A stretch of 64,000 nucleotides of DNA from an uncultured Thermoleophilia bacterium (GTDB taxonomy: Bacteria; Actinomycetota; Thermoleophilia; UBA2241): the NCBI GenBank assembly GCA_963713475.1, contig CAVQLY010000005.1:77955-141954 (forward strand). The letters are read 5' to 3'. A model generated the notes under the pieces. The model was not told where the DNA came from, did no database searches, and saw only the letters and a list, made by a program, of their open reading frames with translations. Below are positions 26,652-62,581 of this stretch, piece after piece. Numbering within the stretch: the first letter of the stretch is position 1; every line of letters begins with the position of its first letter. The translations under genes and the position numbers were made by a program.

Positions 26652-26822
26652 CTCACCTCTTCGTGGTCCTGGGCGAGCGCACGGAAGCCATGACGCCGGA
26701 GCGTCCGGGCGACCCGACCCCGCCGAGACTATCGCGGTACGGCGTGGTGCGCCGAGGCGCGGCGTCTTGTCGGCGATCCGTCGGCGTCAACTCGTGCAAG
26801 CAACTGCGCAGTTGCCGGCCGC

Positions 26823-30971: not shown

Positions 30972-31031
30972 AGACAACGCCATCCATCGCCCGTAGCGTT
31001 ACCTGTGACATCGCGCGAGAGGGGGCACCTC

Positions 31032-33491: not shown

Positions 33492-33516
33492 GCGTCAGGC
33501 CCACGGGCTTTGATAC

Positions 33517-33685
33517 CACTGACGGAGGTGCTGCAGTTCCACCCCGCGGTGTTCTGCTGTCTCGGTGGCTGCCCATGAGGTGCGTGGAGCGCCTGCAAAT
33601 GGGCGGAGGCTGTGCGCTCTCGGCGTCACCCGTCTCGCAGACGCGAGGTTGAGTCAGGCCAGTCCCGTGGGCAGATCCGTGGGCA
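33517..33685 (-). repeat. Truncated tRNA-Cys 3' fragment (33517..33537) + type-1 conserved arm (33538..33685)
   Basis: ccactgacggaggtgctgcag aligns to ccgctgatggaggttttgcag of the other copies. The arm is roughly 85-90% identical by eye to 35279..35440 and 36786..36934. Confidence 0.6.
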
Positions 33686-33702
33686 GCAGGCCGGCCGCGA
33701 AA

Positions 33703-33734
33703 GAGGCCCGCCGCCCTCACGGGTAGCGGGCCTC
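33703..33734 (-). terminator. Hairpin H, copy 1 (GC-rich stem, GUGA loop in gene orientation)
   Basis: gaggcccgccgccctcacgggtagcgggcctc, 117 nt past the stop at 33851. Confidence 0.6.
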
Positions 33735-33850
33735 TTCGGGAAGCTGGCGGCCGGGTTCCGATCAGAGAGGCCGGGCCGCCTGCGAGAGGCTGCGCTCAGC
33801 ACACGTCTCGATCGGTAGCGCCGCCCAAGCCGCACTCGGCGGCCGACGCA

Positions 33851-34444
33851 TCACTTGACCACGAAGGTCACGTCGTCCCAACTGGTCCAGTCGTGCGGAG
33901 GCACGAGCTGGTACTCCCACGGATGGGCGAACAGCGGGTCGGCCATCGTGCGCGGGAACTTGTCGCTGTAGGACACCTTGTAGGTGCCGCGCGCGAGCGG
34001 CGGCATCGGGACGAGCCAGTCCCTGCCCCACACCCCCGCTTGGCTGCCGTTGTAGGGAGCGACCATCATTTCGGGATGGTCGGTCATCCAGGCGTTCCAG
34101 AGATATGGGGCGCCCCAGTAGCTCTGGCACGTGGAGGCATCGACCGTCTTGATCACCAACGCCGGCCGCGGAGACACTCTCGTGACCTCGAGCTTGATCA
34201 ACATGCTCTCCGACTGATTGATGATGCCGCCACGAGTGATGGCGACCCAGGAGGAGCCGACCCTGACGTCGGCCCTCGCCGTCGCGGGCACGCTCTTCGC
34301 GGGCCCCCACGTCATGGTCGCATCATCCACCCAGCTGACGCTTCCGTCGGGACCCACCTGGTAGTAGAAGTCGGCCAGCGCGGGCGCCGCGCTCGCCAGG
34401 AGCAACAGCAAGGCGCAACACAGCAGGAACAGCAGCTTCGTCAT
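33851..34444 (-). CDS. Secreted Trp-rich protein of unknown function (paralog of 19669..20355)
   Basis: GGAGGG RBS. Signal peptide MTKLLFLLCCALLLLLASAAPALA. Intact 197-aa ORF. Confidence 0.7.
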   Translation of the reverse strand: MTKLLFLLCCALLLLLASAAPALADFYYQVGPDGSVSWVDDATMTWGPAKSVPATARADVRVGSSWVAITRGGIINQSESMLIKLEVTRVSPRPALVIKTVDASTCQSYWGAPYLWNAWMTDHPEMMVAPYNGSQAGVWGRDWLVPMPPLARGTYKVSYSDKFPRTMADPLFAHPWEYQLVPPHDWTSWDDVTFVVK

Positions 34445-34508
34445 GACGCCCTCCGATCTTCGGCACTCGGACTACGAGATCATCATCGAAGCGTCGGGCG
34501 GCCCCGTC

Positions 34509-34527
34509 ATCACCGGAATCCGGTGAT
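34509..34527 (-). promoter_or_regulatory. P palindrome, copy 3
   Basis: atcaccggaatccggtgat, about 74 nt upstream of ATG 34444. Confidence 0.6.
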
Positions 34528-34564
34528 TCTTGCGTGCCGATGAGCGTGACAGATCGCAGTCGAT

Positions 34565-34602
34565 GCTCTGTGCGTGTGGGCAAAGTCCCCGAAACGGTGG
34601 CC
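34565..34602 (-). repeat. Box B, copy 1
   Basis: The reverse complement reads ggccaccgtttcggggactttgcccacacgcacagagc. It starts 10 nt after hairpin H copy 2 in gene orientation. Confidence 0.6.
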
Positions 34603-34612
34603 GGCCGCAGAA

Positions 34613-34644
34613 GGGGCCCGCCGCCCTCACGGGCGGCGGGCCTC
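34613..34644 (-). terminator. Hairpin H, copy 2 (fully paired variant)
   Basis: ggggcccgccgccctcacgggcggcgggcctc. The internal loop of the consensus is closed here by C-G/G-C pairs. Confidence 0.6.
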
Positions 34645-34779
34645 CGCGCAGAGTGAGCGGTATGGACGCGACCATTCCGCGCGCAATGGCGTGGGCGACG
34701 CGGCCGATACCGTCGTGAACTGGTTGCGACGTCACGCGGCTATCGCGGGCGGCCCGTGCGCGTCAGGCTGATGCGCTGG

Positions 34780-35031
34780 TCAGGCCACCGGCTTCGCCGG
34801 CGGTGAATGATGCCGCAACAGGGTCATGACGAATGTGACCACGGCGCCGATGATGCCCACCGCAAGTCCAAGAACGCCGCCGAAGGCGATTAGGGACCCG
34901 ACGGCGGTAGTACCCGTGCTGGATTGGTCGCTGATGGTTGCGCCGAGGACGAACGCGAGGACCGACACGGCGGCCAGCAGCAGGAACCACCACGTCCGTT
35001 TCCACTTCGATGTCGAGAGTACCCCAGACAT
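34780..35031 (-). CDS. Small two-TM membrane protein (83 aa), unknown function
   Basis: ORF 34780..35178. ATG 35031 is preceded by aaaggggcgggag. Sequence WWFLLLAAVSVLAFVLG...GVLGLAVGIIGAVVTFVM. Confidence 0.5.
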   Translation of the reverse strand: MSGVLSTSKWKRTWWFLLLAAVSVLAFVLGATISDQSSTGTTAVGSLIAFGGVLGLAVGIIGAVVTFVMTLLRHHSPPAKPVA

Positions 35032-35234
35032 GACTCCCGCCCCTTTCTGGCTCCGGCTCCGGGGAGTACCCCGAGAAGCGCGGAGACCGGCCTCGCGGGC
35101 CGGTCTCACCAGTGGCTCACCGCCGGTGCGTGGTGGCCGCGTACGTGCCGCCGACGGGTCAACGCCTCCCACAAGCATGGTACTCCCCGGTCAACGCGCC
35201 CTCGTGTTCATCGGGGCCACACGCGGAGAGAAGT

Positions 35235-35440
35235 TGGAGGCGGCGAGCGGAGTCGAACCGCTGATGGAGGTTTTGCAGTTCCATCCCGCAGTGTTCTGCT
35301 GTCCCAGTGGCTGCCCGTGAGTTGCACAGAACGCCTGCAAATGAGCGGAGGCTGTGCGCTCTCGGCGTCACCCGTCTCGCAGGCGCGAGATTGGGGCGGG
35401 CCAGTCCCGTGGGCAGATCGGTGCGCAGATCGGTGGGCAG
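35235..35440 (-). repeat. tRNA-Cys(GCA) 3' half (35235..35278) + type-1 conserved arm
   Basis: The reverse complement reads CTGCAAAACCTCCATC-AGCGGTTCGACTCCGCT-CGCCGCC-T-CCA, i.e. anticodon loop, T-arm, acceptor 3' strand, discriminator U and CCA. No 5' half is present. Confidence 0.7.
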
Positions 35441-35608
35441 CCCGGCCGATATCTGCGGACTGGGTTCGCCACGGCGGCGGCCCGTGCCGGCGCCGAGGAA
35501 CGCGACATCATGCGGCAGACGGGACGCCGTTCCACGGTCATGGTCAGGCGCTACATACGCGGCGGCAGTCTGTTCCGCAGCAACGCAGCCTCGGTGGTCG
35601 GCCTCTAG
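35441..35608 (+). pseudogene. Tyrosine-recombinase (integrase) C-terminal stump
   Basis: RYLRTGFATAAARAGAEERDIMRQTGRRSTVMVRRYIRGGSLFRSNAASVVGL. This is the box II region with the RRY catalytic-Tyr context. Nothing recognisable lies upstream. Confidence 0.6.
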
Positions 35609-35620
35609 AGAGGCTCGTGA

Positions 35621-35652
35621 AGAGGCCCACCGCCGTCACGGGTAGCGGGCCT
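35621..35652 (-). terminator. Hairpin H, copy 3 (degenerate, 2 mismatches)
   Basis: gaggcccaccgccgtcacgggtagcgggcctc, between the integrase stump end (35608) and the lipoprotein stop (35690). Confidence 0.5.
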
Positions 35653-35689
35653 CGGTGCGAAGAAGGCGGCCGGGACCCGGGCACTCAAC

Positions 35690-36394
35690 CTAAGGCGTGG
35701 GCGAGGCGACCGACACCGGGCGGAACTTGAAGTTGGGGGTCATGAAAAGATACCCCGACTCGCGCGTGGGGTAGACGAATCCCTCGGCCTCCTCGTCGGC
35801 TTCGAAGAAGTCCACCTCCCCCTGCGCGCGGTTGCCTGTCTCGGCCGCCCACACCAGACCCTTGGGGAAGTTGACCTCCGGGTCGAAGGGCGCCATGGCG
35901 TAGGTGACGACGATGTACGTCCTGCCAGCACGCAGGGTGACCGGCGCGACCTTGACGAAACGGTAGCACGCTTCCAGTGGACTGTTCCGCTGGACCATGC
36001 CTCTGACGAGCAGCTTCTTCGTCGCCATATCGTAGATGCCCGTGGGGTGGGCGTGGCGCAGCCCGTTGCCGCCGTCGTCGAAGTAGCCGAGGTGCGTCAC
36101 TTGGATGTCGACCGTGGGCTTGAAGGTCCAGCCGAGCGAAGTCTCACCGATGTCGGTGGTCGCGTCATCAGGGGGAGGGAACGTGGCGGCCGGGATGGGC
36201 TTGGCTCCCGGCGTCCACGTGTGGGTCGGAGTGGGCGTCGGCGTACTGCTGACGGTGGCAGCGACGCTCGGAGACGGTGCCGCAGTCCCGGTTGTTGCGG
36301 TGTCCGAGCCGCCGCAGGCGGCGAGCACCAGAGCTACGGCGGCGAACGCCGCCAGCGCGGCGGCCCAGATGATCTTCCTCAGACGAGATTCCAT
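35690..36394 (-). CDS. Lipoprotein, DUF4082-like beta-sandwich suggested (paralog of 39432..40094)
   Basis: ORF 35690..36412. GGGAGGGA RBS before ATG 36394. Lipobox LVLAACGG, then a Thr/Pro/Ser linker, then GWTFKPTVDIQVTHLGYFDD...RAGRTYIVVTY. Confidence 0.7.
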   Translation of the reverse strand: MESRLRKIIWAAALAAFAAVALVLAACGGSDTATTGTAAPSPSVAATVSSTPTPTPTHTWTPGAKPIPAATFPPPDDATTDIGETSLGWTFKPTVDIQVTHLGYFDDGGNGLRHAHPTGIYDMATKKLLVRGMVQRNSPLEACYRFVKVAPVTLRAGRTYIVVTYAMAPFDPEVNFPKGLVWAAETGNRAQGEVDFFEADEEAEGFVYPTRESGYLFMTPNFKFRPVSVASPTP

Positions 36395-36449
36395 GGCCCC
36401 GATCCCTCCCATCGTGTGACCACGTCGGACGCCGCGTCAGTCCGCCTTC

Positions 36450-36507
36450 GGGAGTCCCGTATGACGAGACTTGTACGCCCGGTTCGTCATGGCGACAAGC
36501 GTTTATC
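36450..36507 (-). promoter_or_regulatory. Type-2 leader/promoter block, copy 1
   Basis: gggagtcccgtatgacgagacttgtacgcccggttcgtcatggcgacaagcgtttatc. In gene orientation it contains TTGTCG-N17-TACAAG. Confidence 0.45.
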
Positions 36508-36557
36508 GCCCCTGCAGGCCGACGGGAGCGTGGCTGCCGATCTCGCGTGGCCGGACG

Positions 36558-36597
36558 TCCTCTGTGCGTGTGGGCCGGTCCACGAACGGCGGCCGGC
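36558..36597 (-). repeat. Box B, copy 2 (divergent, no adjacent H)
   Basis: Plus-strand sequence cctctgtgcgtgtgggccggtccacgaacggcggccggcc. Confidence 0.45.
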
Positions 36598-36741
36598 CAG
36601 TCGCAGGGAGGACGGCCGGTCTGCCGGCAGGGACGGTGCAGCAGGAGGGCATCATTGGGCAAGACGCAGGCAGCCATGCTGCTTCGCAGGAATGCGGGAC
36701 TGCAGCGGGCACCAGAAGGTGGCCAGGCACAGGACAGAAGT

Positions 36742-36934
36742 TGGAGGCGGCGAGCGGAGTCGAACCGCTGATGGAGGTCTTGCAGTCCCATCCCGCAGTG
36801 TTCCGCTGTCTCAGTGGCCGCCCCTGAGTTGCACAGAACGCCTGCAAATGTGCGGAGGCTGTGCGCCCTCGGCGTCACCCGTCTCGCTGACGCGAGGTTG
36901 AGTCAGGCCAGTCCCGTGGGCAGATGCGTGGGCA
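36742..36934 (-). repeat. tRNA-Cys 3' half (36742..36785) + type-1 conserved arm
   Basis: tggaggcggcgagcggagtcgaaccgctgatggaggtcttgcag. The arm aligns to the 33.5 kb and 35.3 kb copies. Confidence 0.7.
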
Positions 36935-36963
36935 ACGCCGCGGGCGACTTGCCGGTCGCGGAT

Positions 36964-36995
36964 GAGGCCCGCTGCCCTCACGGGGGGCGGGCCTC
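36964..36995 (-). terminator. Hairpin H, copy 4
   Basis: gaggcccgctgccctcacggggggcgggcctc, 35 nt past the stop at 37031. Confidence 0.6.
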
Positions 36996-37030
36996 CTGCT
37001 ATCAGATGTCCGGGTGCGTTCGGTACCCGA

Positions 37031-37531
37031 TCACCGTCCCGCGATGAAGATGTCTGCGTAGCCGGTGATGTAGACCGGCCCGGCCTCGTTCAGCGCAGAG
37101 GTGAGGCCTATCGCCTTCGTCTTGTGTCCGACCAGCCACTGGTACTGCGGCGAGGCGGCCGTCACCCGCCCGTTGGCCTGGAACCTGTAGGTGCTCACGA
37201 AGTTGTAGACGCCCACCTGGTAGCCGCTGATCGTCACGGGGGCGACGGCGTCAGCGTCGTACCCGCCGACGTAGATGGTCCAGTCCTCGATGAAGTGCTG
37301 GGTCCTGCCGGTGTACCGGCTGAGTGCGCCGCCGTCCCGCTCGACGTAGGCGATGTCGCCGTTGATGGCGCCCGTGATGGGGCCGAACCAGTCGCCAATG
37401 GGGTTGATGTCAGGAGCGACCGAGAGGTCCGTATGGCACCTGAGCGGCGCGTTGCTCTTGGACTGCGCCGCAGCCGGCCCCGCCAGCGCGAGCACGAGCA
37501 GTGCCAGAGTGATGAACAGTACCTTTCTCAT
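37031..37531 (-). CDS. Secreted beta-rich protein of unknown function (166 aa)
   Basis: ORF 37031..37696. GGGGAGG RBS before ATG 37531. Signal peptide MRKVLFITLALLVLALAGPAAA. Confidence 0.7.
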   Translation of the reverse strand: MRKVLFITLALLVLALAGPAAAQSKSNAPLRCHTDLSVAPDINPIGDWFGPITGAINGDIAYVERDGGALSRYTGRTQHFIEDWTIYVGGYDADAVAPVTISGYQVGVYNFVSTYRFQANGRVTAASPQYQWLVGHKTKAIGLTSALNEAGPVYITGYADIFIAGR

Positions 37532-37596
37532 TGCGCTACCTCCCCAGTGTCGTGACCTGCGATGCATCAGTGTGCGGCGTTCGCGGCGCACTGTCA

Positions 37597-37613
37597 TCAC
37601 CGGAATCCGGTGA
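37597..37613 (-). promoter_or_regulatory. P palindrome, copy 4
   Basis: tcaccggaatccggtga, about 76 nt upstream of ATG 37531. Confidence 0.6.
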
Positions 37614-37650
37614 TTTCTGGGTGCCGGCGAACGTGACAGATGCTGTCGGT

Positions 37651-37690
37651 GCGCTTGGTGCGTGTGGACAAAGTCCCCGAAGCGGTGGCC
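37651..37690 (-). repeat. Box B, copy 3
   Basis: The reverse complement reads ggccaccgcttcggggactttgtccacacgcaccaagcgc. It starts 10 nt after hairpin H copy 5. Confidence 0.6.
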
Positions 37691-37700
37691 GGTCAAAGAA

Positions 37701-37732
37701 GAGGCCCGCTGCCCTCACGGGTGGCGGGCCTC
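37701..37732 (-). terminator. Hairpin H, copy 5
   Basis: gaggcccgctgccctcacgggtggcgggcctc. It follows a roughly 210-bp slot (37733..37945) with no gene. Confidence 0.6.
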
Positions 37733-37945
37733 TGCCAGCTGAACTGAGAGCCGCCCGCCGCAGCTCGGGAGAATGCTGACAAGTCAGCCGTCCAAGACGT
37801 GCCTACCTTGTCGCTTCCCCAGCGCATCACGCCGGTATCCATCCCTAGCGTGTCGCGCTGCGCCATGCCGAGCATCTGCGACGGGCACCTTGATACTGCG
37901 CGCCTTCGGCGGCGGCCACAAGCGTTGGCCCCAGCGTTCAGGCAA

Positions 37946-37979
37946 GAAGGCCCGCTGCCCTCACGGGTGGCGGGCCTCC
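37946..37979 (-). terminator. Hairpin H, copy 6
   Basis: gaaggcccgctgccctcacgggtggcgggcctcc, 17 nt past the GYD stop at 37995. Confidence 0.6.
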
Positions 37980-37994
37980 TGCTGTCGTGCGCCG

Positions 37995-38288
37995 TCAGGG
38001 CAACTGGCTCACAAGGCCGGCGAACTCCTCAGGCGTGAAGGCGCGGAGCGTCTGAGTGGTGACATAGCCCTGAGCGGCCAGCGCCATCGCCGTCACGGCT
38101 GCGACCTCGTCGCTGGGACCTTCTGCCACCGCCACGTAGTCGTAGGCGCCCATCGTGGCTCTGAAGCAGACCATCTTCCCGCCCGCGGCCTCGAGCGCCT
38201 TGATGCCCGCGTCGATCCGCGCCGGCGCGCCCTTGAGGTCGGCAAGTCCCTTCGGGGTCATGTTGAAGAGAAGGACGAACTGCGCCAT
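37995..38288 (-). CDS. GYD-domain protein (97 aa)
   Basis: MAQFVLLFNMTPKGLADLKGAPARIDAGIKALEAAGGKMVCFRATMGAYDYVAVAEGP, with the characteristic G-x-YD core. Confidence 0.8.
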   Translation of the reverse strand: MAQFVLLFNMTPKGLADLKGAPARIDAGIKALEAAGGKMVCFRATMGAYDYVAVAEGPSDEVAAVTAMALAAQGYVTTQTLRAFTPEEFAGLVSQLP

Positions 38289-38376
38289 GGTGCACCTCCT
38301 GTGCCGTGGCGTCGCATCCTCTGTGCGGCGCCGTCACCAACCACCTCTACGGTAGGTGTGGCGAGCGCCGCCGTCT

Positions 38377-38393
38377 TCACCGGAATCCGGTGA
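38377..38393 (-). promoter_or_regulatory. P palindrome, copy 5
   Basis: tcaccggaatccggtga, about 96 nt upstream of ATG 38288. The upstream context gctcgccgtcgcccaagaa is conserved. Confidence 0.6.
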
Positions 38394-38441
38394 TTCTTGG
38401 GCGACGGCGAGCATCGGCGGCGACTTCCCCCGGCCAGCAAA

Positions 38442-38473
38442 GTGGCCCGCTGCCCTCACGGGTGGCGGGCCTC
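38442..38473 (-). terminator. Hairpin H, copy 7
   Basis: gtggcccgctgccctcacgggtggcgggcctc. It is followed in gene orientation by a truncated box B. Confidence 0.6.
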
Positions 38474-38583
38474 TGTGTGAGGCGGGCGGCGGTCACAAGG
38501 CTCCTCGGGCGCATGACGAGTGGCGATCCCGGCGACGCACCGTGCCGGATGCGGAGCCGTCCAGTCAGTAGGTTGTCGGCATG

Positions 38584-39124
38584 TCACGGGGCGGGACTGG
38601 CGGTCGGCAGATCCTTCAGGTGCACGGTCTTGTCGTACACGACTCTGTTTGTGCTCTTCTGGTCGTTGTCGTTGGCCCCGACGCTTCCCGCGAGGCCCTC
38701 CTCCGCAGTCCAGACCAGGCTGTCGGGGTCGTCCGGCGCCTTGGCGATCTGGAAGCCCCACGTGTAGCCCGAGTCCTTGTTGTACATGGTGAATCGAATC
38801 GCTGTCCTTCCACCGGTTCTTCTTCACGTATTCCGTGATGTCGATCCACCCGCTGTCGTCGAGGTAGCCGGCCTTCTTCACAAGGTCCCCGTTGACATAC
38901 GCCTTGCCCACTTCATCGACGTTGTAGATGCGGAGATACCATCCTTCACTCGCCGGAGTGGGGCTGGGCGTCGGGCTGACGGCCACCGCCGCGATGGGCG
39001 AGCTCGAAGGCGAGTCAGACGCAATGGTAGTTGTGCCACCGCAGGCTGCGAGCACCAGAGCCGCAGCGATGAACAGCGCGAGCGTCGCAACCCAGATGGA
39101 CTTCCTCAGGCTTGAGCGTCTCAT
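38584..39124 (-). pseudogene. Lipoprotein (lectin-like beta-sandwich?) with one frameshift near 38790
   Basis: ATG 39124 gives MRRSSLRKSIWVATLALFIAAALVLAACGG...ITEYVKKNRWKD. The sequence then continues in another frame as (AIRFT)MYNKDSGYTWGFQIAKAPDD... to the stop at 38584. Confidence 0.6.
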
Positions 39125-39181
39125 GACTCCGATCCCCCCCCATCGCGCCACCACGTCGGACGCCCGTGCCGGTCCGCTCTC

Positions 39182-39239
39182 GGGAGTCCCGTATGACGAA
39201 ACTTGTACGCCCGGTTCGTCGTGGCGACAAGCGTTTGTC
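39182..39239 (-). promoter_or_regulatory. Type-2 leader/promoter block, copy 2
   Basis: gggagtcccgtatgacgaaacttgtacgcccggttcgtcgtggcgacaagcgtttgtc. Confidence 0.45.
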
Positions 39240-39288
39240 ACCGTCGCCGGACAACGGGTGGGTGGACCGCTTTCGGACCTGACCGGAC

Positions 39289-39332
39289 GCTCTGTGCGTG
39301 GACGGAGGCCCCTAGACGGCAGTCGGTCGGCC
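39289..39332 (-). repeat. Box B, copy 4 (divergent)
   Basis: gctctgtgcgtggacggaggcccctagacggcagtcggtcggcc, starting 9 nt after hairpin H copy 8. Confidence 0.45.
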
Positions 39333-39341
39333 GTCGCAAAA

Positions 39342-39373
39342 GAGGCCCGCTGCCCTCACGGGTGGCGGGCCTC
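39342..39373 (-). terminator. Hairpin H, copy 8
   Basis: gaggcccgctgccctcacgggtggcgggcctc, 59 nt past the stop at 39432. Confidence 0.6.
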
Positions 39374-39431
39374 TGGCGAGACGAACGACCCTGCCCGCCA
39401 TACCTCGGGTCTACGGCGCCCGCGAAGTGAC

Positions 39432-40094
39432 CTAGAGCGGCTTGTACTTGAAGTTGGCGGTGATGAACTCGTTCGGGTTGGTCGGCGGGTAGACGAACTC
39501 GTCGGTCAGCGTCTCGCGGTAGCCTACGTACTCGATCTCGGGCGCGAAAACCAGCCCCGTCGGGCCGTTGACCTCGGGGTCGAAGGGCGGGTATGGAGAC
39601 GGTGGCCACCACGTAGGACGCGCCCGCCGCGAGGGTCACGGGCTGGATCCTCGTGAAGCGGTAGGCCCCGTCCAGCGAGCTCTTCTTCTCGACGGTGGTC
39701 TTCACCAGCAGCTTCTGTGTGGATACATCGAAGATGCCCACTGGATGCGGGTGGCGCAGGCCGTTCCCGCTGTCGTCGAAGTAGCCGAGGTGCGTCACTT
39801 GGATATCGACCGTTGGCTTGAACTCCCAGCCGTTCGTGCTCGACTGGAAGCCCTCTGTAGTGCCCTCCTGAGCAGGGATGGATGCGGCCGGGATGGGCTT
39901 CGCGCCAGGCGCCCAAGTACCGGTCCAGTCGGCGTCGGCGTACTGCTGATGGTGGCAGCGACGCTCGGAGATGGTGCCGCAGTCCCAGTCGTTGCGGTGT
40001 CCGAGCCGCCGCAGGCGGCGAGCACGAGAGCCGCGGCGACGACCAGCGGCCAGCGTGGCAGCCCAGATGGACGTCCTCAAACGAGACGTTTCAT
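39432..40094 (-). pseudogene. DUF4082-like lipoprotein paralog of 35690..36394, with at least 4 frameshifts
   Basis: ATG 40094 hits a stop after 5 codons. Homologous segments (IWAATLAA; LAACGGSDTATTGTAAPSPS; GWEFKPTVDIQVTHLGYFDDSGNGLRH; FDPEVNGPTGLVF...ANFKYKPL*) lie in three different frames. Confidence 0.6.
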
Positions 40095-40150
40095 GGTCCC
40101 GATCCCTCCCATCGTGTGACCACGTCGGACGCCCGCGCCGGTCCGTCGTC

Positions 40151-40207
40151 GGGAGTCCCGTATGACGAAACTTGTACGCCCGGTTCGTCGCGGCGACAAG
40201 CGTTTGT
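40151..40207 (-). promoter_or_regulatory. Type-2 leader/promoter block, copy 3
   Basis: gggagtcccgtatgacgaaacttgtacgcccggttcgtcgcggcgacaagcgtttgtc. Confidence 0.45.
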
Positions 40208-40348
40208 CACGCCGGAGACCGAACGTCCGCGTCGCTCAGGCGCGATGGTCCATTCAGCCCGATTCGAGTAGCTTCGACGGGATGTCGGCATCTAGGCCGT
40301 CAAGAGTGTCGATGCACACAGAGTAGGCATCCATGCGCGGAGAGAAGT

Positions 40349-40540
40349 TGGAGGCGGCGAGCGGAGTCGAACCGCTGATGAAGGTTCTGCAGTCGTCAGG
40401 CGGTCATGCGCGCCGGTAGTCGCCTGGACGCGATTGTGCTGCAAAGTCCAGGTTTCCGGCCGCCCTCCGTGATGCGCGCTGCACGGCTGTGGTGCGCCGT
40501 GCTGAGGCGTCTTATCGGCCGTTCGTCGGCAGGTGAGCCG
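40349..40540 (-). repeat. tRNA-Cys 3' half (40349..40392) + type-2 conserved arm
   Basis: tggaggcggcgagcggagtcgaaccgctgatgaaggttctgcag. The arm (tcgtcaggcgg...gattgtgctgcaaagtccagg...gaggcgtcttatcggc) aligns to 46711..46857. The outside flank gcggagagaagt is shared with the 35.2 kb copy. Confidence 0.65.
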
Positions 40541-40643
40541 CCTGGCAACGCGATGATTGAAGGCCAGGGGGCTGCCTTTGCGGATCAGCTCGGTCTCTTG
40601 CCGGCGACCCTACGTCGGCGCCATCCCCGGCCCAAGAGGCAGA

Positions 40644-40680
40644 GAAGCCGCCGATGGGGGCTCACCGGCGGCTTCTTTTC
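40644..40680 (+). terminator. Plus-strand intrinsic terminator with no annotated plus-strand gene upstream
   Basis: gaagccgccg-atgggggctca-cggcggcttc followed by tttt. Confidence 0.45.
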
Positions 40681-40859
40681 GCTACGGTCCTTCTGTCAAC
40701 GGGGTGACGGGGCATGCGACCTCGAGTCGCTTCAAGGCGGCTCGACGTCGTGTCGATTGCCGGCACGTCTCGCAGCTGGCAACGACGGCCCTCACCACCC
40801 CGCGCCGGCCCAATCGGCGGCACGAGCCGGGACGCGAGGCGACCCCGCCTTCACCGTCG

Positions 40860-42734
40860 TTAGTACTCCCTTTCCACCGAGCGCCGCCGGCGCCGCATCG
40901 CGATGATGCCGAGAACGCCGAGCACCACCACAGCGCCGACAACGACGAACACCGTCGTGGAGCCGCTTTTGCCGGACGAGGTGCCCGTGCCCATCGTCCC
41001 CGTCAGGGGATGGACGAGACGGTAGGTGTCTATGTTGAAGTAGCAGTAGAGGACCGAGCCTTGCTGGCCGCTCGGGGCATCGCTGGGCACTTCGACCCAG
41101 CCCGCCCAGTCGCGGGTGTTGAAGGCCTGCAGCGAGTCGGGGTAGGCGAGGATGGCATAGGGCGCGGCGTCGTAGAAGAGCTGCTGCATCTGCCTGACGA
41201 TCTCGATGCGCTTCGTCTGGTCGAGGGTCCGAGACTGCTGCTGGAAGAGCCTCGTGTACTCTGGGCTCGTCCAGTTGCAGTCGCTGCCAGTGCCGATCTG
41301 CTTCGGCGTAAACAGGCCGAGGATGTAGTTGGGGTCGGGCTCCGCGGTCCAGTACCACACGCACATGTCCCAGTCGGGCGCGAAGGTGTCGGCCTCCCAG
41401 TTGAGTTGCATGTCGCCGAACGCGCTGGGGTCAATGACCTGATAGGTCACCTTGATGCCCACGTCCTTGAGCCAGCCTGCGATCAGCTTGGCTGCCGTCT
41501 GGTCCTCGACGGAGTCGGTCGTCGCGGCGAGGCGCAGGTCCAGCTTCTTGCCGGCAGGAGTCTCGCGGTAACCGTCTCCGTTCACATCGCCGTAGCCGGC
41601 GGCGTCGAGGATCTGCCTCGCTGTGGCCGGGTCGTACCTGAACGCCGTCGCGGCCGGTGGCTGCAAGTGATACGGCGAGTACGGCACCATGAGCGTCGAG
41701 CCGACCGTGGCGTATCCGCTGTAGGCCAGCGCGACCACTTTCTCGCGGTCAACGGCCCAGTTGACGGCCTGCCGGAAGCGCTGGTCGAGGAGCACCGGAT
41801 TGCCCTTCGAGTCCGGGCTGTCGTAGCAGTTCATCGCAAGTTGGCTGAAGCGCCAGAGCGCGCCCTCGACGCCGGAGAAACCAGGCCGGGTGGAGACGGA
41901 GGCGAACTGCGCCATCGGTACGTCGATCGCGCCGGCGAGCGCGCCCGACTCGAGGTCGCTGACCATCGAGCTGGGGTTCGAATATGTCTGGAAGATGACC
42001 TCGTCCACCTTGGGAGCGCCGGCCCAGTAGTCCTTGTTGGCGACGAGGCGCACGAACTTGCCCTTCTGCCACTCGACGACCTGGAACGGCCCGCTGCCGA
42101 TCACCGGGGGGTTGTTCTGGAACGTCGTCCTCGCCGCCTTGCCGCTGACCTTGCTCCAGATGTGCTCCGGGATGATCGGCACGATCATCTGCAGCATGTT
42201 CGCCTTAGGCGCCGTGGTGTAGATCTTCACGGTGACGTCGTCGACCGCCACGGCCTTCGTGATCCCGTCGGTGTACGAGGCGAGGTTCCAGAGGTTGTTA
42301 TCGAGCTGGTAGTTGAACGTGAAGGCGACGTCTCTGGCCGTGAGCGGTACGCCGTCCTGCCACTTCACCCCGCTGCGGATGGTGAAGGTCCACACGGTGC
42401 CGTCGGGGGACACGGACCACTTCGTAGCCAGCTCCGGGCGCGGCTGCAGCGTCTTTGCGTCCAGGCTGGTGAGGAAGTCGTAGTTCATGTGGTAGAGCTG
42501 GTACGAAGTGGCCTGCCAGCCGACGAAGGGGTTCAGGCTGTCCGGCTCCTGGACCCACCCGACGCGCAGGATGGACGCGGCGCCGGGCGACGCGCTGGGG
42601 GACGCGGCCGGGGACGCGGCCGCCGAGCCGCACGCGAAGAGCAGGAGGGCGAGCGCGACGGCTGCCGAGACGACACGGCCTCCTCCGAGACCTCCAGCGT
42701 GGCTGCGGCAGCGACCACTGTACACGTGCCTCAT
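40860..42734 (-). CDS. ABC-transporter substrate-binding protein, family 5 (peptide/nickel type), with lipobox and C-terminal TM anchor
   Basis: ORF 40860..42875. ATG 42734. N-terminus LLLFACGS. Family-5 core LRVGWVQEPDSLNPFVG. C-terminus TTVFVVVGAVVVLGVLGIIAMRRRRR. No permease or ATPase genes nearby. Confidence 0.8.
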   Translation of the reverse strand: MRHVYSGRCRSHAGGLGGGRVVSAAVALALLLFACGSAAASPAASPSASPGAASILRVGWVQEPDSLNPFVGWQATSYQLYHMNYDFLTSLDAKTLQPRPELATKWSVSPDGTVWTFTIRSGVKWQDGVPLTARDVAFTFNYQLDNNLWNLASYTDGITKAVAVDDVTVKIYTTAPKANMLQMIVPIIPEHIWSKVSGKAARTTFQNNPPVIGSGPFQVVEWQKGKFVRLVANKDYWAGAPKVDEVIFQTYSNPSSMVSDLESGALAGAIDVPMAQFASVSTRPGFSGVEGALWRFSQLAMNCYDSPDSKGNPVLLDQRFRQAVNWAVDREKVVALAYSGYATVGSTLMVPYSPYHLQPPAATAFRYDPATARQILDAAGYGDVNGDGYRETPAGKKLDLRLAATTDSVEDQTAAKLIAGWLKDVGIKVTYQVIDPSAFGDMQLNWEADTFAPDWDMCVWYWTAEPDPNYILGLFTPKQIGTGSDCNWTSPEYTRLFQQQSRTLDQTKRIEIVRQMQQLFYDAAPYAILAYPDSLQAFNTRDWAGWVEVPSDAPSGQQGSVLYCYFNIDTYRLVHPLTGTMGTGTSSGKSGSTTVFVVVGAVVVLGVLGIIAMRRRRRSVEREY

Positions 42735-44170
42735 AGATGCTCCTTTCGGCGCCCGCGGGGGGAGGCGCTCCCGGCATGACGCGCGTACGCTTCGAAGGTT
42801 CGCATGATCGCCGCGCGGACGAGGCCGGGTCGACGGCCTCGCTCCGCGGCGCGGTCGCCGGTCTCGCCAGCCCAAGCGACGGTCCGCACCATCGGCCAGC
42901 GCAGCGGCTCCGGCGGTAGCTTGGCCCGCGGCGGGCCAACGACCGGCATGCGGCTCCAGCGGTCGTCCTCGCCGAGGACGAGCGAGGCGAGGATGCGGCC
43001 GCCGAGCCTGGTGGCAGCCAGTCCGTGCCCTGAAAACCCGAGCCCGGCATGCACGCTGCCGTCCGGAGAGCTCTCGAAGAACGGGAGTCCCGACGGCGTC
43101 AGGTCCATCGGGCCGCTCCAGGCGGCATCGACACGGACGCCGTCGAGTTGCGGGAACAGCCAGATCAAGCAGCGGGCCGCGACCTCGGCCATCCGTGCCG
43201 AGGACGGGTCGGGCGCGGCGATGCGGCCCGCGAAGACCGCGCCCATGGCGCCTCCGCCGACGGCGATACGCCCGTCGTCGGTGGTGCGAAGGTACGCCGC
43301 CAGCTCCCGGACGTCAGCGAGCGGCGCTCGACGTCCACCCGATCTGCGCGATCAGCTCCGGGATCGGTTCGTCACGACCATTGCGTTCGTGCAGACGGCG
43401 AAGGCGCGACGGAAGTGCGGCCGGGACGCTGCCCACGCCCCGTTTGCCAGCACGACACGCCGTGCCGAGACGTAGCCGCCCGGCGTCTCCACACGCGCCG
43501 GGCGGCCCGGCGTGAAAGCGGTCATGGGAGTGCCTTCGCAAATCCACACGCCGCGCTCGAGAAGCACGCGGCGAAGCTCGCGCGCCAGGCTTGCCGGCTG
43601 GATCACGGCGAGGTCGTCGGTCACGACGCCGCCGCAGAAACGCGGCGAGTCGGCGACCTGCCGCGCCGCGGCGGCATCGACGACCCGCAGCCGGCCGGCG
43701 AGCCCGTGCTTCTCCAACAGGCGCAGATCCTCGTCGCCCGGATCCTCCTGCCATTCCACGGTCTTCGCGTACAAGATGCCGTTCGAGTGCAGGCCGATCG
43801 CGGCGTGATGCCGTGCAGTCCACGCCTCAAGGCCCGGCACCTCGTCTGCAGCGCCGCGGCGTACTCGATCCCCTGCTCCTCGCCGAGATGGTGGCAGAGG
43901 GAGGCGACCCCGATCCACGACGGCGAGAAGAAGCCGCCGTTGGAGCCGCTCCCGCCGGCGCCACACACGTCCGCCTCAAGAAGCGTGATGCCGAGATCCG
44001 GCCGGCGCTCGCTCAGTTCGTAGGCAGTCCAGAGGCCCGCGAAGCCGCCGCCCACGACGCAGACGTCGGCGTCCGTCTCCTCAGCGAGCGGAGGGCACGG
44101 GGAGGGTCGATGCGCAGGGCTTCAAGAGCCAGTAGCTGCGCGCACCACGGCGGGGACGCACGCGCCATCA
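42731..44170 (-). pseudogene. FAD-dependent (DAO-family) oxidoreductase, with at least 4 frameshifts
   Basis: Segments SYWL..., DADVCVVGGGFAGLWTAYEL, GGSGSNGGFFSPSW, VITDDLAVIQPASLAREL and the C-terminal HAGLGFSGHGLAATRLGG lie in ORFs 43621..44055, 43352..43966 and 42731..43246 in different frames. The stop overlaps the SBP start (ATGA). The 5' end is approximate. Confidence 0.65.
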
Positions 44171-44249
44171 TCGGCGGTTTGTCTGTGGCCTCGTCGCACC
44201 GTCGTCATCTGAGGACACCTGGCGACCGCTCAGCGGGTTCGCCATGTGT

Positions 44250-44777
44250 AGTTGTACTTCTGCGTATGCAGGACGGATCAGGTTCTAACCCTTGTATTCT
44301 CAATTCGCAGGACGTTCGTGATGAATGAAGAGGTCTCATCGTCTTGACATGCACTCGATGAGGATGTCGATGCTCCCGCGAGGCAGGCACGTCGAGACGC
44401 TGTCAGCGCCGCAAGCCTGTCGGCGACGACCTCAGGCTGTCGGCCTGACTTTCAGCCGATGACGACCTCTCTCTCCAGGCTAGGGCGGCGGGTTGAGTAC
44501 GCATGATGTCGAGAACAGCCGCGTAAGAGGCGGTCCAGCCGGTTGCGTACCGTCTGCATCGACTTGCCGACAATGCGCGCATGTCGGCGTGCGAGCGACG
44601 ACCGTCTTCCTGCAGCAGGCTGATGATCTGCAGGTCGAGCTCGTCGAGCTCGAGACGCTGGGGCGGTTTCTGTCTCTTCGCATCGATTCGCGGCGATGGC
44701 CGGCGCAGACCTGCAGAAGGGAGTTGCACTGTGGGTGCTTGTACGCGTAGAGTGGAGTATGTCAATTCTTTTGCCAT
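44250..44777 (-). pseudogene. Lrp/AsnC-family regulator, frameshifted (ends approximate)
   Basis: LDELDLQIISLLQEDGRRSHAD, then in another frame ARIVGKSMQTVRNRLDRL, then further shifts (VLDIM...). Confidence 0.5.
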
Positions 44778-44896
44778 GAAGTCGTCATTAGTTACCATGA
44801 TTATGAGATATTTCTTGACTATCATCCTCTACCTTTCCATATTGCTGAGATAATGCCATATGTAAGAGGGGTGAGCGGATTGCGCGCGCGTGAACT

Positions 44897-45169
44897 GTGT
44901 GCCGCACCGTCGCTGCTCGATCGCGCGCGGTGCCTATACTTCCCGGGTTGCCACGGTTGCGAGTGTCCCACTGGGGCTACCTGCTTAACGGCAGAATGCG
45001 AGTGAAATACGCCAACCACGAAGAAGTCATCACGGCAGGGGAAGCCTACTATTTGGCCCCGGGTCATATTCCGGTGATGGAAGAAGATTGTGAGATGGTC
45101 GAATTCAGCCCCAAAGACGAAAGCCGGAGGATGCTGGCGTTCGCAAGTCGCAGCACGGCGCCGAAGTGA
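44897..45169 (+). pseudogene. Cupin-domain protein, probably 5'-truncated
   Basis: ILPGLP...HWGYLLNGRMRVKYANHEEVITAGEAYYLAPGHIPVMEEDCEMVEFSP. The expected N-terminal 40-50 aa or so are not recognisable upstream. Confidence 0.45.
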
Positions 45170-45440
45170 CTAGGTGTTCCAGTCGCTCACCGTACGGTGG
45201 TGAGGACACTGTCGGCTCACTTCATTCCGCGATGGCTCTCCGGCAGGACTGTAGGCGTCGCCCCGGTCAACCTGCAAGGGTCACAGGAGCTTAGAGCCTC
45301 CGCTGCCATGTGCCGCATCCGGAGGTGGCGGAACTCGAGGCCCCCGGCCGGGTCGAAGCGCTAAATCAGCCGTCCGCGCCGAGCGAACACGACGGTGCCG
45401 GGTGGTGTCCGTCCCGCGGGTGCCGCTGCATCCGCCACGC

Positions 45441-45689
45441 TTAGCCCCCCGGCACGGCTGGGGCGGGATGCTCCGGCTCGGCGGTTGCCTGCCGCTGGAG
45501 CAGATCGAGGATCTGGTCGGTGTTCGCTCGGATCGCCGTGACGTTGTTGAAGATCCACTTCGGCGGAGCGCTGTCCGGCATCGCCGCGATCCGCGACGCG
45601 AAGTCGAACTGGCCGGCACGCGGTCCCAGCCACTTCGCCAGCAGTACAGCGACGGCAACGATGGGTATGAGCACTGCGATGCGCTTCAT
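45441..45689 (-). CDS. Small N-terminally anchored hypothetical protein (82 aa)
   Basis: MKRIAVLIPIVAVAVLLAKWLG followed by a soluble tail. No homology recognised. Confidence 0.4.
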   Translation of the reverse strand: MKRIAVLIPIVAVAVLLAKWLGPRAGQFDFASRIAAMPDSAPPKWIFNNVTAIRANTDQILDLLQRQATAEPEHPAPAVPGG

Positions 45690-45797
45690 GCGTTCCTCCT
45701 GTCAGACGCTTGCCCGTACCGCCGGAGCCGGCGTGAGCACGAACTCCCTCCCGAAATCTCCTGCGCCGCCGCGACTCTGGCGGAGGCGCTGATCCGC

Positions 45798-46436
45798 TCA
45801 CGCGCCCGAGACCAGATGCCCGTGGCTCCGCCGCTCATGACGTCTGACCAGCAAGTCGGCGCCCGTCACAGCCGCCGCGCCCATGGCGCCAGGTAGATAG
45901 AGGAGTGCGAGAGCCTCCACCCTGTCTTGATCGGGCGTGAGTCCCCTCGCCCAGACGATCCAGCCCACGACGAAGGCGGCGTAGGCGACGGTCGCGAGCA
46001 GACGGAGGATGTCGAGCCGCACGTGCTCACGCCGGCGCGGCGAGAGGTCACGCAGCGCGTCGACGGTGAGCCACACGGCCACGGCGAGGGACGCCGCGAC
46101 GACGACCGTCACGGCTGTCCATGAGAGGTTCTCTTGGGACATGCCCAAGAGGCTGCCCAGCGCGCCGACGGCGAGGAACGCGACGACCGCGCCGACGATG
46201 AAGCCCAGGATCGCCCCAAGCGTGGCCGTGACGTCGACGTGACGGCCGTACAGCGACCACGCGAGCAAGGGTGCGAGGAGCACGGCTGCGACCACGAGGA
46301 CGCCCCACCCGCCAAAGGTGTGCACAAGCAACGCCGGCAGCCCCACGACGATTGCGATCGCTGCGGCCGTCAGCAGGCCGCCGTCGCCCGCCTGCAGCGC
46401 ACGCGGGCCCACCTTGAAAGTCCGAGCGGATGCCAT
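45798..46436 (-). CDS. Polytopic membrane protein, unknown function
   Basis: ORF 45798..46508. ATG 46436. Six hydrophobic segments. Confidence 0.5.
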   Translation of the reverse strand: MASARTFKVGPRALQAGDGGLLTAAAIAIVVGLPALLVHTFGGWGVLVVAAVLLAPLLAWSLYGRHVDVTATLGAILGFIVGAVVAFLAVGALGSLLGMSQENLSWTAVTVVVAASLAVAVWLTVDALRDLSPRRREHVRLDILRLLATVAYAAFVVGWIVWARGLTPDQDRVEALALLYLPGAMGAAAVTGADLLVRRHERRSHGHLVSGA

Positions 46437-46666
46437 GACGCTCGCCCCCTTCACCCCTCGGTCGGCACGGCGTCGACGCGCCGCGCCACATAGATGGAAT
46501 ATGCCCAACCGTGCATGAGTACTCCGTTGTGCCGGAGTGGAGGATGACTCTCTTCATCGGCGAGCAGCGTAGCTGACGGCGGGCGGCGGGCCTCTTCTCA
46601 CTGCCGATTCGGAAGGAAATGGGCAGGAGGCGGCCACAAGAAAGTGCCCATTTGCAGGAGAAAGAT

Positions 46667-46857
46667 TGGAGGCGGCGAGCGGAGTCGAACCGCTGATGGA
46701 GGTTTTGCAGTCGTCAGGCGGCGGTGCTGGGCCGGAGCGTCCCGTGCGCCATTGCGCTGCACAGTCCGAGTTACCGATTGGACTCGATGCTGCCTCGTCC
46801 TCGGCTGTTGTGGGTCGTGAGGAGGCGTCTCGTCGGCAACTTGTCGGCAGTGCCGCG
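46667..46857 (-). repeat. tRNA-Cys 3' half (46667..46710) + type-2 conserved arm
   Basis: tggaggcggcgagcggagtcgaaccgctgatggaggttttgcag, then tcgtcaggcgg..., homologous to 40393..40540. Confidence 0.65.
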
Positions 46858-57980: not shown

Positions 57981-58122
57981 GGCTCAGACGGCCCCCGTCC
58001 TTGCCAAGAATCGTGCCAACATGCCAATCCGAACGATGGGGATTGTGGCAGTGTATGGGGCTGTGTGGAGGCTGGAGGAGCACCGCAGGCACGGTCAGGG
58101 TTGATGAAAATCGTGTCGCGGC
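57981..58122 (+). repeat. Leader block R4, copy a (about 140 bp)
   Basis: ggctcag..ccttgccaagaatcgtgcc..gattgtggcagtgtatggggctgtgtggaggctggaggagcaccgcaggcacggtcaggg..atcgtgtcgcggc. Aligns to 61979..62118. Confidence 0.6.
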
Positions 58123-58223
58123 CTGTGAACGGCTGCCAGAAGGGGTCCGAAGCCAAGACTGGGAGGGGGCAGCGCATCGGGCACACCGTTTCTTCAGCCA
58201 GAACGAAGCGCGGGGGGTCTGAA

Positions 58224-61200: not shown

Positions 61201-61828
61201 TCTGGGCCTGGGGGGACGAGACGTCACCCGGCAGCGTCACGGAGGTCAACGGCTGCGGCACGGTCTCGGGGACGCACACCTACCTCAAACCGGGCGTCTA
61301 CACCGTGACGCTGACTGTGACCGACGATGACGGCGCCTCGAGCCAGCGCGTCTACGGGTACGTCGTGATCTACGACCCGAGCGCCGGGTTCGTCACCGGC
61401 GGCGGGTGGATCCTGTCGCCTGCCGGGGCGTACGTGCCCGACCCGGGCGCTGACCGGGACGGCCAGCTTCGGCTTCGTCACCAAGTACCTGAAGGGTGCC
61501 ACGGTGCCGACCGGCGAGACCGAGTTCGTGTTCCAGGCCGCGGGCACATGAACTTCCAGTCGACCAGCTACCAGTGGCTGGTTGTCTCCGGAAAGGACAA
61601 GGCCCAGTACAAGGGCAGCGGCACGATCAATGGTTCGGCGGCAACTACGGCTTCATGCTGACCGCGCTCGACGGACAGGTCTCTGGCGGCGGCAATCTCG
61701 ACAAGCTGCGCATCAAGATCTGGGACAAGACCAGCGGTGAGGTCATCTACGACAACAAGCCTGGTGCCGCGGACACTGCCGACCCGACCACGACCCTCGG
61801 CGGCGGCAGCATCGTCGTCCACAATTAG
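58224..61828 (+). pseudogene. Giant exported surface protein (SGDRVVW-type repeats, 7 FG-GAP/VCBS-like repeats, PKD-like domain), broken by at least 10 frame changes and an in-frame TAG
   Basis: ATG 58224 gives signal peptide MVRKGLFMVVFATATL. Motifs VSGDRVVW, ISGDRVAW and TVSGERVVW occur at 58.3-59.4 kb. VGDFNGDGKQDLV occurs 7 times at 59.6-60.5 kb. YFHVRAVNRAGYGG and THTYLKPGVYTVTLTVTDDDGAS follow. The end GGGSIVVHN* is at 61828. The pieces lie in 12 or more ORF-track fragments. A TAG occurs at about 60330. Confidence 0.65.
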
Positions 61829-62439: not shown

Positions 62440-62581
62440 AGACAACCCCGTTCTGCGCCTCCATGATGACGATGGGAGGCATTGATCCGCCGGACGCACC
62501 ACCGCGGCCACCAGACACCGGGGGGGAGCCGCTGGTGAGGCCGGACCTCTGGGAGCCAAGGGGCCAACCACGGGAGGGAGC

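Follow-up and report, generated by a model that had tools for sequence, protein, structure and literature searches.

The 64,000-nt stretch of DNA analysed here (the window) covers positions 77955–141954 of contig C5 in the draft genome G000 of an uncultured Thermoleophilia bacterium, and carries five direct copies of the 3′ half of a tRNA-Cys gene. This array very probably arose as integrase-borne islands accreted in tandem at one tRNA-Cys(GCA) hotspot and later lost their integrases. The draft genome was assembled from a metagenome and comprises 3.27 Mb in 26 contigs, with 70% G+C, 88% completeness, and 4% contamination. Labels of the form G0xx denote genomes of the same genus, 54 of which were compared, and C denotes a contig; the tRNA halves are designated c0–c4 and the units S0–S4. 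Positions beyond the window end are given as extrapolated window coordinates.

The repeated unit is 44 nt long, and its expected number of chance occurrences, estimated from 100 shuffles, is zero. The original prediction, made from the letters of the window alone, placed copies of it at 35235, 36742, 40349, and 46667 and a truncated one at 33517. All four copies were found, two of them exact, and the truncated copy is recognisable:

33490–33536, minus strand: c0, a decayed tRNA-Cys 3′ half, clear at 33515–33536, where 18 of 22 bases match beside the anticodon loop
35235–35278, minus strand: c1, a tRNA-Cys 3′ half identical to the intact gene
36742–36785, minus strand: c2, a tRNA-Cys 3′ half with one mismatch
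40349–40392, minus strand: c3, a tRNA-Cys 3′ half with two mismatches (one in a sibling assembly, see below)
46667–46710, minus strand: c4, a tRNA-Cys 3′ half identical to the intact gene

To the left of the clear part of c0, a fainter similarity extends to about 33490, across the stop codon of an M28 peptidase gene (31005–33491). Read on the minus strand, the unit comprises the anticodon loop CTGCAAA, a 4-nt variable region, the T-arm AGCGG-TTCGACT-CCGCT, the acceptor strand, a discriminator U, and CCA. ARAGORN detected no tRNA inside the window, while its application to the whole genome revealed a sole tRNA-Cys(GCA) gene at C5:145680–145753 on the minus strand (extrapolated 67726–67799), with a tRNA-Gly(GCC) gene adjoining. 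The unit equals bases 31–74, i.e., the last 44 nt, of this 74-nt gene, and all copies cease to match it at the first base (the 5′ edge) of the anticodon loop. The reading of the repeat as a tRNA-Cys 3′ half, the divergence of all copies right after the anticodon loop, and the location of the intact gene at higher coordinates outside the window, in fact 3.7 kb past its end, had all been anticipated correctly. Two findings had been named as incompatible with tandem integration, namely, the absence from the genome of a tRNA-Cys with this 3′ half and the dispersal of the unit at unrelated loci. The gene at C5:145680–145753 carries exactly this half, and neither blastn-short nor an nhmmer profile of trailer plus half detected copies outside the tRNA-Cys locus in the 3.27-Mb genome. 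The gene and the fragments share one replicon and the minus strand, with all fragments on the 3′ side of the gene, and the fragments start at the anticodon loop and reach the 3′ end; these are the orientation and the terminal fragments that characterise islands of the Islander type.

The sequences flanking the halves on the two sides are of different nature. On the left, each half continues into a trailer of 25–110 nt, which resembles what follows the 3′ end of intact tRNA-Cys genes throughout the genus; trailer-like sequence is present even in a genus genome without tRNA-Cys fragments. On the right, alignment bore out the two flank families that had been distinguished, type 1 at 33.5, 35.3, and 36.8 kb and type 2 at 40.4 and 46.7 kb. 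The type-1 arms, located to the right of c0, c1, and c2, are pairwise 83–91% identical according to BLAST and 87–89% identical in global pairwise alignment, and the type-2 arms, to the right of c3 and c4, are about 75% identical. Arms and trailers delimit the units as follows:

33537–33697, plus strand: type-1 arm of S0, carrying GTGGGCA as direct repeats (+129 and +141, counted from the crossover) and sharing 92% identity with the arm at the G015:C4 end
35212–35234, minus strand: right-end trailer of S0 (nhmmer core profile and alignment)
35279–35441, plus strand: type-1 arm of S1, with GTGGGCA at +130 and +154 and GTGCGCA in between
36658–36741, minus strand: right-end trailer of S1, with 77% identity to those at G015:C6:412261 and 430408 (nhmmer)
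36786–36949, plus strand: type-1 arm of S2, with GTGGGCA at +130 and +142; 93% identical to the G015:C4 arm
40322–40348, minus strand: right-end trailer of S2 (nhmmer and alignment)
40393–40532, plus strand: type-2 arm of S3, its nearest relative being the arm at G063:C3:60.6 kb (77%)
46601–46666, minus strand: right-end trailer of S3, sharing 91% identity with the one that follows the intact tRNA-Cys gene in G063
46711–46850, plus strand: type-2 arm of S4, with GTCGGCA at +121 and +132
46711 to the intact tRNA-Cys at 67726–67799: extent of S4, with a trailer at about 67635–67725

Both arm types contain direct repeats about 120–155 nt from the crossover. Those of type 2 read GTCGGCA and are located at +121 and +132, and sometimes also at +143, in G000, G015, G017, and G024, while a single copy is kept in G063. 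Those of type 1 read GTGGGCA and occur about 12 nt apart, starting from +129 or +130, in c0 and c2, whereas the middle one of the three copies in c1 is degenerate. No such direct repeats were found in the 5′ flanks of intact tRNA-Cys genes, and the repeats are putative arm-type binding sites of an integrase. Judged by sequence, both flank families look like arms of an element attachment site (attP). Their proposed role as attP arms is supported by their recurrence beside tRNA-Cys halves in other genomes of the genus: type 2 is the usual arm beside halves and is found in G015, G017, G024, and G063, and type 1 recurs at the G015:C4 end, at the outermost decayed half of G061:C1, and partly in G063:C3.

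Profile searches of the genome with nhmmer for additional decayed halves or arms returned only two hits, an arm remnant at 26.7 kb, discussed below, and an arm on contig C9. The latter directly adjoins a tRNA-Arg(CCT) 3′ half situated about 3.9 kb from the intact gene, and it is type-2-like (G000:C9:106787–106962, profile E 1.4e-15); this similarity suggests that a related element family may be aimed at another tRNA. One extra well-kept 3′ half is present in this genome for each of tRNA-Arg(CCT), tRNA-Ile, tRNA-Met, and tRNA-Ala.

The integrases expected of such elements are found mostly in the relatives. A search of the whole genome with PF00589 revealed two Xer-like tyrosine recombinases (C3) and one fragment at C5:144007–144282, and there was no match above the threshold in S0–S3. 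These four units, bounded by trailer plus half and by arms and containing neither integrase nor transfer genes, have the structure of cis-mobilizable elements (CIMEs). Close to the intact tRNA-Cys, remnants of two integrases were recognised by comparison with a 421-aa protein of G017:

65908–66382 (extrapolated): integrase remnant matching residues 262–419 of the G017 integrase
66714–66821 (extrapolated): integrase remnant matching residues 386–421 of the same protein

The N-terminal 261 residues of the G017-type integrase are absent here. The last 1.07 kb before the tRNA are 92–93% identical to the matching ends in G017 and G024. In G017 the matching unit is 13.9 kb long, and at a distance of about 0.9 kb from the half it has a whole integrase with a SAM-like N-terminal domain and a catalytic domain. 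Among the cargo of this unit are an M28/PA peptidase, a DinB-type polymerase, a methyltransferase, a hemerythrin, and an exonuclease, and no phage or conjugation genes were found in it. Likewise, none of the G000 units was seen to contain genes for conjugation or mobilisation. The 421-aa integrase (SAM_3 and PF00589) or its homologues are located 0.1–2.4 kb from a tRNA-Cys gene or half, with the C-terminus facing it, in many genomes. Full-length homologues are encoded at G017:C30:76492–77754, G045:C120:7960–9120, and G065:C4:502675–503832, and fragmentary ones lie near the tRNA-Cys or a half in G002, G024, G043, G050, G055, G056, and G060, among others. The relatives thus conform to the rule of one integrase per island, and their full-length tyrosine integrases beside the tRNA or its halves speak for integration at tRNA-Cys, as had been claimed.

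A further piece of a tyrosine recombinase lies within S1:

35444–35608, plus strand: C-terminal stump of a tyrosine recombinase, 54 codons, with a conserved hairpin directly after it

Its product, GRYLRTGFATAAARAGAEERDIMRQTGRRSTVMVRRYIRGGSLFRSNAASVVGL, gave no match in a Pfam search of the window's own open reading frame and was identified via homology, being 83% identical to a stump in G061:C3, which matches positions 126–166 of PF00589. The motifs GHSLR and TGHRS of the relatives read GRYLR and TGRRS in the window, so both histidines are lost. The stump family differs from the G017-type family found near the tRNA. Its relatives occur at five places in four genus genomes (G061:C3, two in G022, G009:C13, and G063:C3), one of them about 0.8 kb from a tRNA-Met gene. 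All five are short C-terminal pieces with open frames of 74–167 aa, the same hairpin follows four of them, and no full-length relative was found in the genus. Three copies, including that of the window, have nearly the same starting point, immediately ahead of the HxLR motif. Since the family occurs only as short C-terminal pieces, the stump may be a remnant of something other than the own integrase of S1. Therefore, the statement that only the 35.3-kb copy keeps an integrase C-terminus holds as far as the existence of the stump is concerned, while the two pieces near the tRNA make it not the sole remnant. An integrase gene spanning attP, as in SSV or Mx8, was also considered and rejected, as two in-frame stops separate the c1 half from the stump and the arm has no homology to integrases; the one-base indel errors of the assembly weaken the argument from the reading frame. 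The same picture would result if a deletion inside the unit had brought the arm next to what is left of an integrase from its far end, as in G024:C10:366.0–369.1 kb.

Two sibling assemblies obtained from other samples, ENA ERZ25039545 contig_57151 and ERZ25039503 contig_82381, made it possible to assess both the array and the quality of the sequence. Jointly they are collinear with the window over 26.8–65.5 kb, with identities of 96–97.5% and 93%, respectively, and they reproduce the order and spacing of the copies: c1–c3 in contig_57151, c1–c2 in contig_82381, and c4 in a second stretch of contig_57151. The comparison with contig_57151 revealed 144 one-base indels in 19.3 kb, or about one per 130 nt, and about three quarters of the one- and two-base indels are bases missing in the window. 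The genes for the DAO protein (496 aa), the FG-GAP protein (1094 aa), M20, and AsnC are whole in the sibling and broken in the window; the reverse holds for the M28 and MMPL genes, which the window has whole and the sibling has split. Because different genes are broken in each assembly and the indels are biased, the frameshifts appear, on this sequence comparison, to be mostly consensus errors. Pseudogene calls based on reading frames are thus unsafe in this genome, and the supposed decay of the metabolic genes between the copies is unsupported, mostly reflecting one-base assembly indels in genes that the sibling has whole.

Only two large differences from the siblings were observed, a 555-nt indel at 58009–58562 and the tRNA-proximal end. 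The sibling diverges at 65519, where at least 4.9 kb of other genes (an ankyrin-repeat protein, CpXC, and a HigBA-like pair) replace the integrase remnants, and the tRNA-proximal end thus differs between strains. A repeat of 135–145 nt with TTGCCAAC occurring twice in it is present at 57982–58123, 61985–62118, and 65392–65536, and both large differences start within a copy of it.

Comparable arrays are common in the genus. The tRNA-Cys query matched 52 of the 54 genomes, and in many of them 3′ halves form an array on the strand of the gene, with six halves in G015:C6 (spread over 155 kb), three in G024:C10, and two each in G017:C30, G063:C3, G056:C3, and G055:C23. The tRNA-Cys genes of the genus fall into four T-stem variants, all of them compensatory pairs.

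Tandem integration at one tRNA site, as originally proposed, is supported, and every testable prediction derived from it held. The array could have formed as follows. Each island would once have carried a tyrosine integrase and an attP consisting of the 3′ 44 nt of the tRNA, a trailer of about 25–110 nt, and, across the crossover, an arm of about 140–165 nt. Recombination between attP and the tRNA gene, carried out by the integrase where the anticodon loop begins on its 5′ side, would let the 3′-half copy of the island rebuild the gene and would displace the previous 3′ half outward. At least five such rounds, and probably six or seven, would have produced the order (possibly the 26.7-kb remnant)–c0–S0–c1–S1–c2–S2–c3–S3–c4–S4 (with the remnant of a further element)–intact tRNA-Cys, and the two arm families would correspond to two related element families. 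Later internal deletions may have removed the integrases, in which case the present units would be fixed integrase-less islands of 1.5–21 kb. We infer the position of the crossover, the order of events, and deletion as the route of integrase loss from the arrangement described above.

Several observations weigh against such accretion with later loss of the integrases. No unit of this genome has a whole integrase, so the Islander rule of one integrase per island fails here. The units are 1.74 (S0), 1.51 (S1), 3.6 (S2), 6.3 (S3), and 21 kb (S4) long, while Islander takes 2 to 200 kb as the length of an island, and S0 and S1 are smaller than islands normally are. Decay has gone further in the c0 half than in the arm next to it. 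Among the genus genomes compared, no close relative was found to have an empty site. Finally, the displaced halves of G000 and 14 relatives carry the T-stem variant of their host in about 24 of 25 cases, the exception being G013:C3:722.7 kb, which free exchange of elements between species would not predict; it implies either that the spread is limited to lineages sharing a variant or that the halves undergo gene conversion from the gene.

The small size of S0–S2 (1.5–3.6 kb) could alternatively mean that they never had integrases and were moved in trans, as non-autonomous mini-units, by the integrase of a neighbouring or incoming element. Each such mini-unit would have trailer plus half at one end and a type-1 arm at the other, and the tRNA-Cys trailer region would to some degree resemble a cassette platform. 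Despite their shortness, S0 and S1 keep near-perfect halves (zero to one mismatch) and both arm ends; the stump family of S1 is known only from pieces at unrelated loci, mostly with the same hairpin; and the type-1 units of G061 are also devoid of integrase, while in G015:C4 the nearest integrase is 9 kb off and has no half beside it. We nevertheless consider this explanation unlikely, since units across the genus measure 1.5–49 kb and are mostly island-sized, small units of relatives hold integrase fragments where internal deletion would leave them (G024:C10:366.0–369.1 kb), no unit was found as the same cassette elsewhere or with other neighbours, the siblings are collinear wherever they cover the array, and the assembled genome contains no integrase to act in trans. 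We give just as little credence to its more general version, in which the tRNA-Cys trailer would be a standing gene-capture platform where short units without integrases, delimited by a half with its trailer and by an arm with integrase-binding repeats, are inserted, excised, and reshuffled in trans by the integrases of passing elements, supplying secreted-protein genes controlled by cyclic di-GMP (c-di-GMP) riboswitches; if it were true, repeated replacement of the 3′ half could drive the compensatory T-stem variants between species.

Multiplication of half plus arm within one old island without repeated integration, by unequal crossing-over or replication slippage among the tRNA gene, its trailer, and older copies, appears less probable again. 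The three type-1 arms are consecutive, all halves share the T-stem variant of the host, and several units contain paralogous DUF4082 lipoprotein genes and common promoter and terminator modules, all of which would suit duplication in place. However, the arms, short as these sequences are, are as close or closer to arms of other genomes than to their neighbours: c3 is nearest to G063 (0.77) and c4 to G015 (0.72), with less than 0.66 between the two, and the c0 and c2 arms are nearer to the G015:C4 arm (0.92 and 0.93) than to each other (0.89). The absence of mutual closest relatives within the genome argues against duplication, as do the existence of two distinct arm families and the otherwise unrelated contents of the units. 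The halves are 95–100% identical to the gene, while the arms differ by 9–25%, which fits attP copies held to the tRNA sequence better than neutral duplicates, and in relatives the same architecture stands beside integrases that, from their sequence, look active. There is hardly any chance that the copies represent a tRNA-derived dispersed repeat (SINE- or REP-like) or a chimeric metagenome join. The sequence is indeed a metagenome draft with many one-base indel errors, but the unit is confined between the intact tRNA-Cys and the upstream flank and is always on the strand of the tRNA, two other assemblies reproduce the order and spacing, and the longest exact repeat between copies is shorter than 60 nt.

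The closest relative usable for synteny is G061, whose own tRNA-Cys site is occupied too. Collinearity of the backbone with G061 begins 19 kb before the window start, ends about 15.0 kb inside the window, and resumes at the tRNA; everything in between, from 15.0 to 67.6 kb, is therefore variable. Within this region, one more possible trace of an attachment site was detected:

26734–26782, plus strand: tentative distal type-2 arm remnant (nhmmer type-2 profile, E 0.023 genome-wide and 1.4e-4 within 14–33.5 kb)

This sequence, GGCGTCTTGTCGGCGATCCGTCGGCG, aligns with the c3 and c4 arms, and no tRNA half survives alongside. It may mark an older unit at 26.7–33.5 kb, containing genes for a sigma factor, an MMPL-type protein, and the M28 peptidase. 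A gene pair at 27.5–30.8 kb sits within the tRNA-Cys arrays of G061, G015, and G017, and in G061 a DUF4082 lipoprotein gene directly follows the type-1 arm, much as in S1. Together with the 26.7-kb remnant, these placements suggest that the array reaches further left than c0. A search for related loci of the M28 peptidase yielded only a distant match in Bacteroidota; in the genus, the best M28 matches (34–37%) correspond to a paralogue on C6, and no orthologue was found beside tRNA-Cys. We tentatively regard the M28 peptidase gene as probably cargo of the older unit rather than a native neighbour of the tRNA. The empty site envisaged in the original prediction, with the 31005–33491 gene next to the tRNA, is thus probably not the ancestral arrangement, as backbone synteny with G061 already ends near 15.0 kb. 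The small closed genomes G048 and G049 have a lone tRNA-Cys without fragments or a nearby integrase; they are syntenic on the right flank only, being too distant for any synteny on the left. The left flanks of G015, G017, G024, and G063 offered no useful synteny either.

The cargo of the units consists mostly of secreted, lipoprotein, transport, or metabolic genes. Pfam searches identified an SBP_bac_5 solute-binding protein, a GntR/UTRA regulator, a piece of an M20 peptidase, a GYD protein, pieces of a DAO oxidoreductase, of an AsnC-type HTH protein, of an SSF transporter, and of a choline-kinase-like protein, as well as PKD proteins, collagen-like proteins, and DUF4082 lipoproteins. Shared regulatory modules are the only relation between the contents of different units. 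A large FG-GAP/PKD surface protein gene at 58563–61700, fragmented in the window, contains internal repeats of about 150 nt (59604–60530). At the window end, a gene extending from 63798 to 64000 and on to extrapolated position 65258 encodes a 486-aa secreted protein with collagen-like Gly-X-Y repeats (Pfam Collagen, E 1.1e-14).

Two c-di-GMP-II-GAG riboswitches scoring above the Rfam threshold were detected at 35089–35178 on the minus strand (60.6 bits) and at 62466–62555 on the plus strand (40.8 bits). They sit upstream of small membrane or secreted protein genes within the islands. A sequence at about 63478–63560 on the plus strand, upstream of a collagen-like gene, is about 80% identical to the first riboswitch and falls below the Rfam gathering threshold. 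The palindrome TCACCGGAATCCGGTGA lies upstream of several island genes, at 34494–34554, 37581–37641, and 38361–38421. The 28-nt hairpin GGCCCGCYGCCCTCACGGGYRGCGGGCC follows genes, in the orientation of the gene, at these sites:

33705, 34615, 35624, 36966, 37703, 37949, 38444, and 39344, plus strand: hairpin
56328, 57380, 57919, and 63348, minus strand: hairpin

Twelve of about 18 hairpin sites in the genome (with no more than five substitutions) are inside the tRNA-Cys array. An integron was considered as well and rejected: no integrase lies within or beside the array, the boundaries are tRNA halves and not attC sites, and the hairpin occurs in both orientations and also outside the array.

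Tandem genomic islands in tRNA and tmRNA genes, made by tyrosine integrases, are defined by Islander and TIGER (PMC4383910, PMC12424338). As in Islander islands, an intact tRNA is followed downstream by 3′ fragments in the same orientation, the start at the anticodon loop corresponds to the "A" class of sites, the island copy restores the gene, and tyrosine integrases are found next to the att site (in the relatives). Unlike the islands covered by the Islander rule (one integrase per island, at least 2 kb), the array contains no whole integrase and includes two units shorter than 2 kb. Arrays of three or more islands were rare in the Islander survey, 4 among 3919 islands (PMC4383910), which places the five to seven junctions found here at the high end.

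The closest described long array with many integrase-less units is the ssrA region of Dehalococcoides, where many direct repeats of the 3′ end of a single small-RNA gene occur within 100 kb downstream, mark tandem islands, and vary in number between strains (PMC3146451). About half of these islands have no integration module, and they were interpreted as units that are either cis-mobilizable or fixed (PMC3146451). The Dehalococcoides system differs in using a tmRNA target, a 20-bp repeat, and a serine recombinase, in place of tRNA-Cys, 44 nt plus trailer, and a tyrosine recombinase. For the CIMEs related to ICESt1 and ICESt3 of Streptococcus, accretion proceeds through integration, decay that keeps the attL and attR attachment sites while the integration genes are lost, and integration of the next element at the att site at the gene end (PMC5704250). 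The sequence from integration through integrase-less decay to accretion has been documented elsewhere (PMC5704250; PMC3146451). The same three steps are proposed here as for the streptococcal CIMEs, with the difference that no conjugation or mobilisation genes were seen either here or in the G017 unit. In the same phylum, integrative elements of actinomycetes such as pSAM2 (tRNA-Pro) and SLP1 (tRNA-Tyr) have the integrase gene beside attP, with its 3′ end facing it. Their att identity covers the 3′ part of the tRNA and continues beyond the gene end; they carry replication and transfer genes, in contrast to the cargo-only units found here.

tRNA insertion hotspots are of a well-known kind, and the present array leaves the current understanding of island formation unchanged. 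For this genome, the locus marks about 35–50 kb of the contig as horizontally acquired and sets the limits of the variable region, one near 15 kb and the other at the tRNA; the pile-up of islands accounts for the clustering of secreted-protein and transport genes that differ in origin. The attP architecture, composed of half, trailer, and arm with repeats about 11 nt (type 2) or about 12 nt (type 1) apart, could provide an integration tool if the G017-type integrase is active. Finally, tRNA-Cys emerges as a genus-wide insertion hotspot, with up to six displaced halves, in this uncultured soil lineage.

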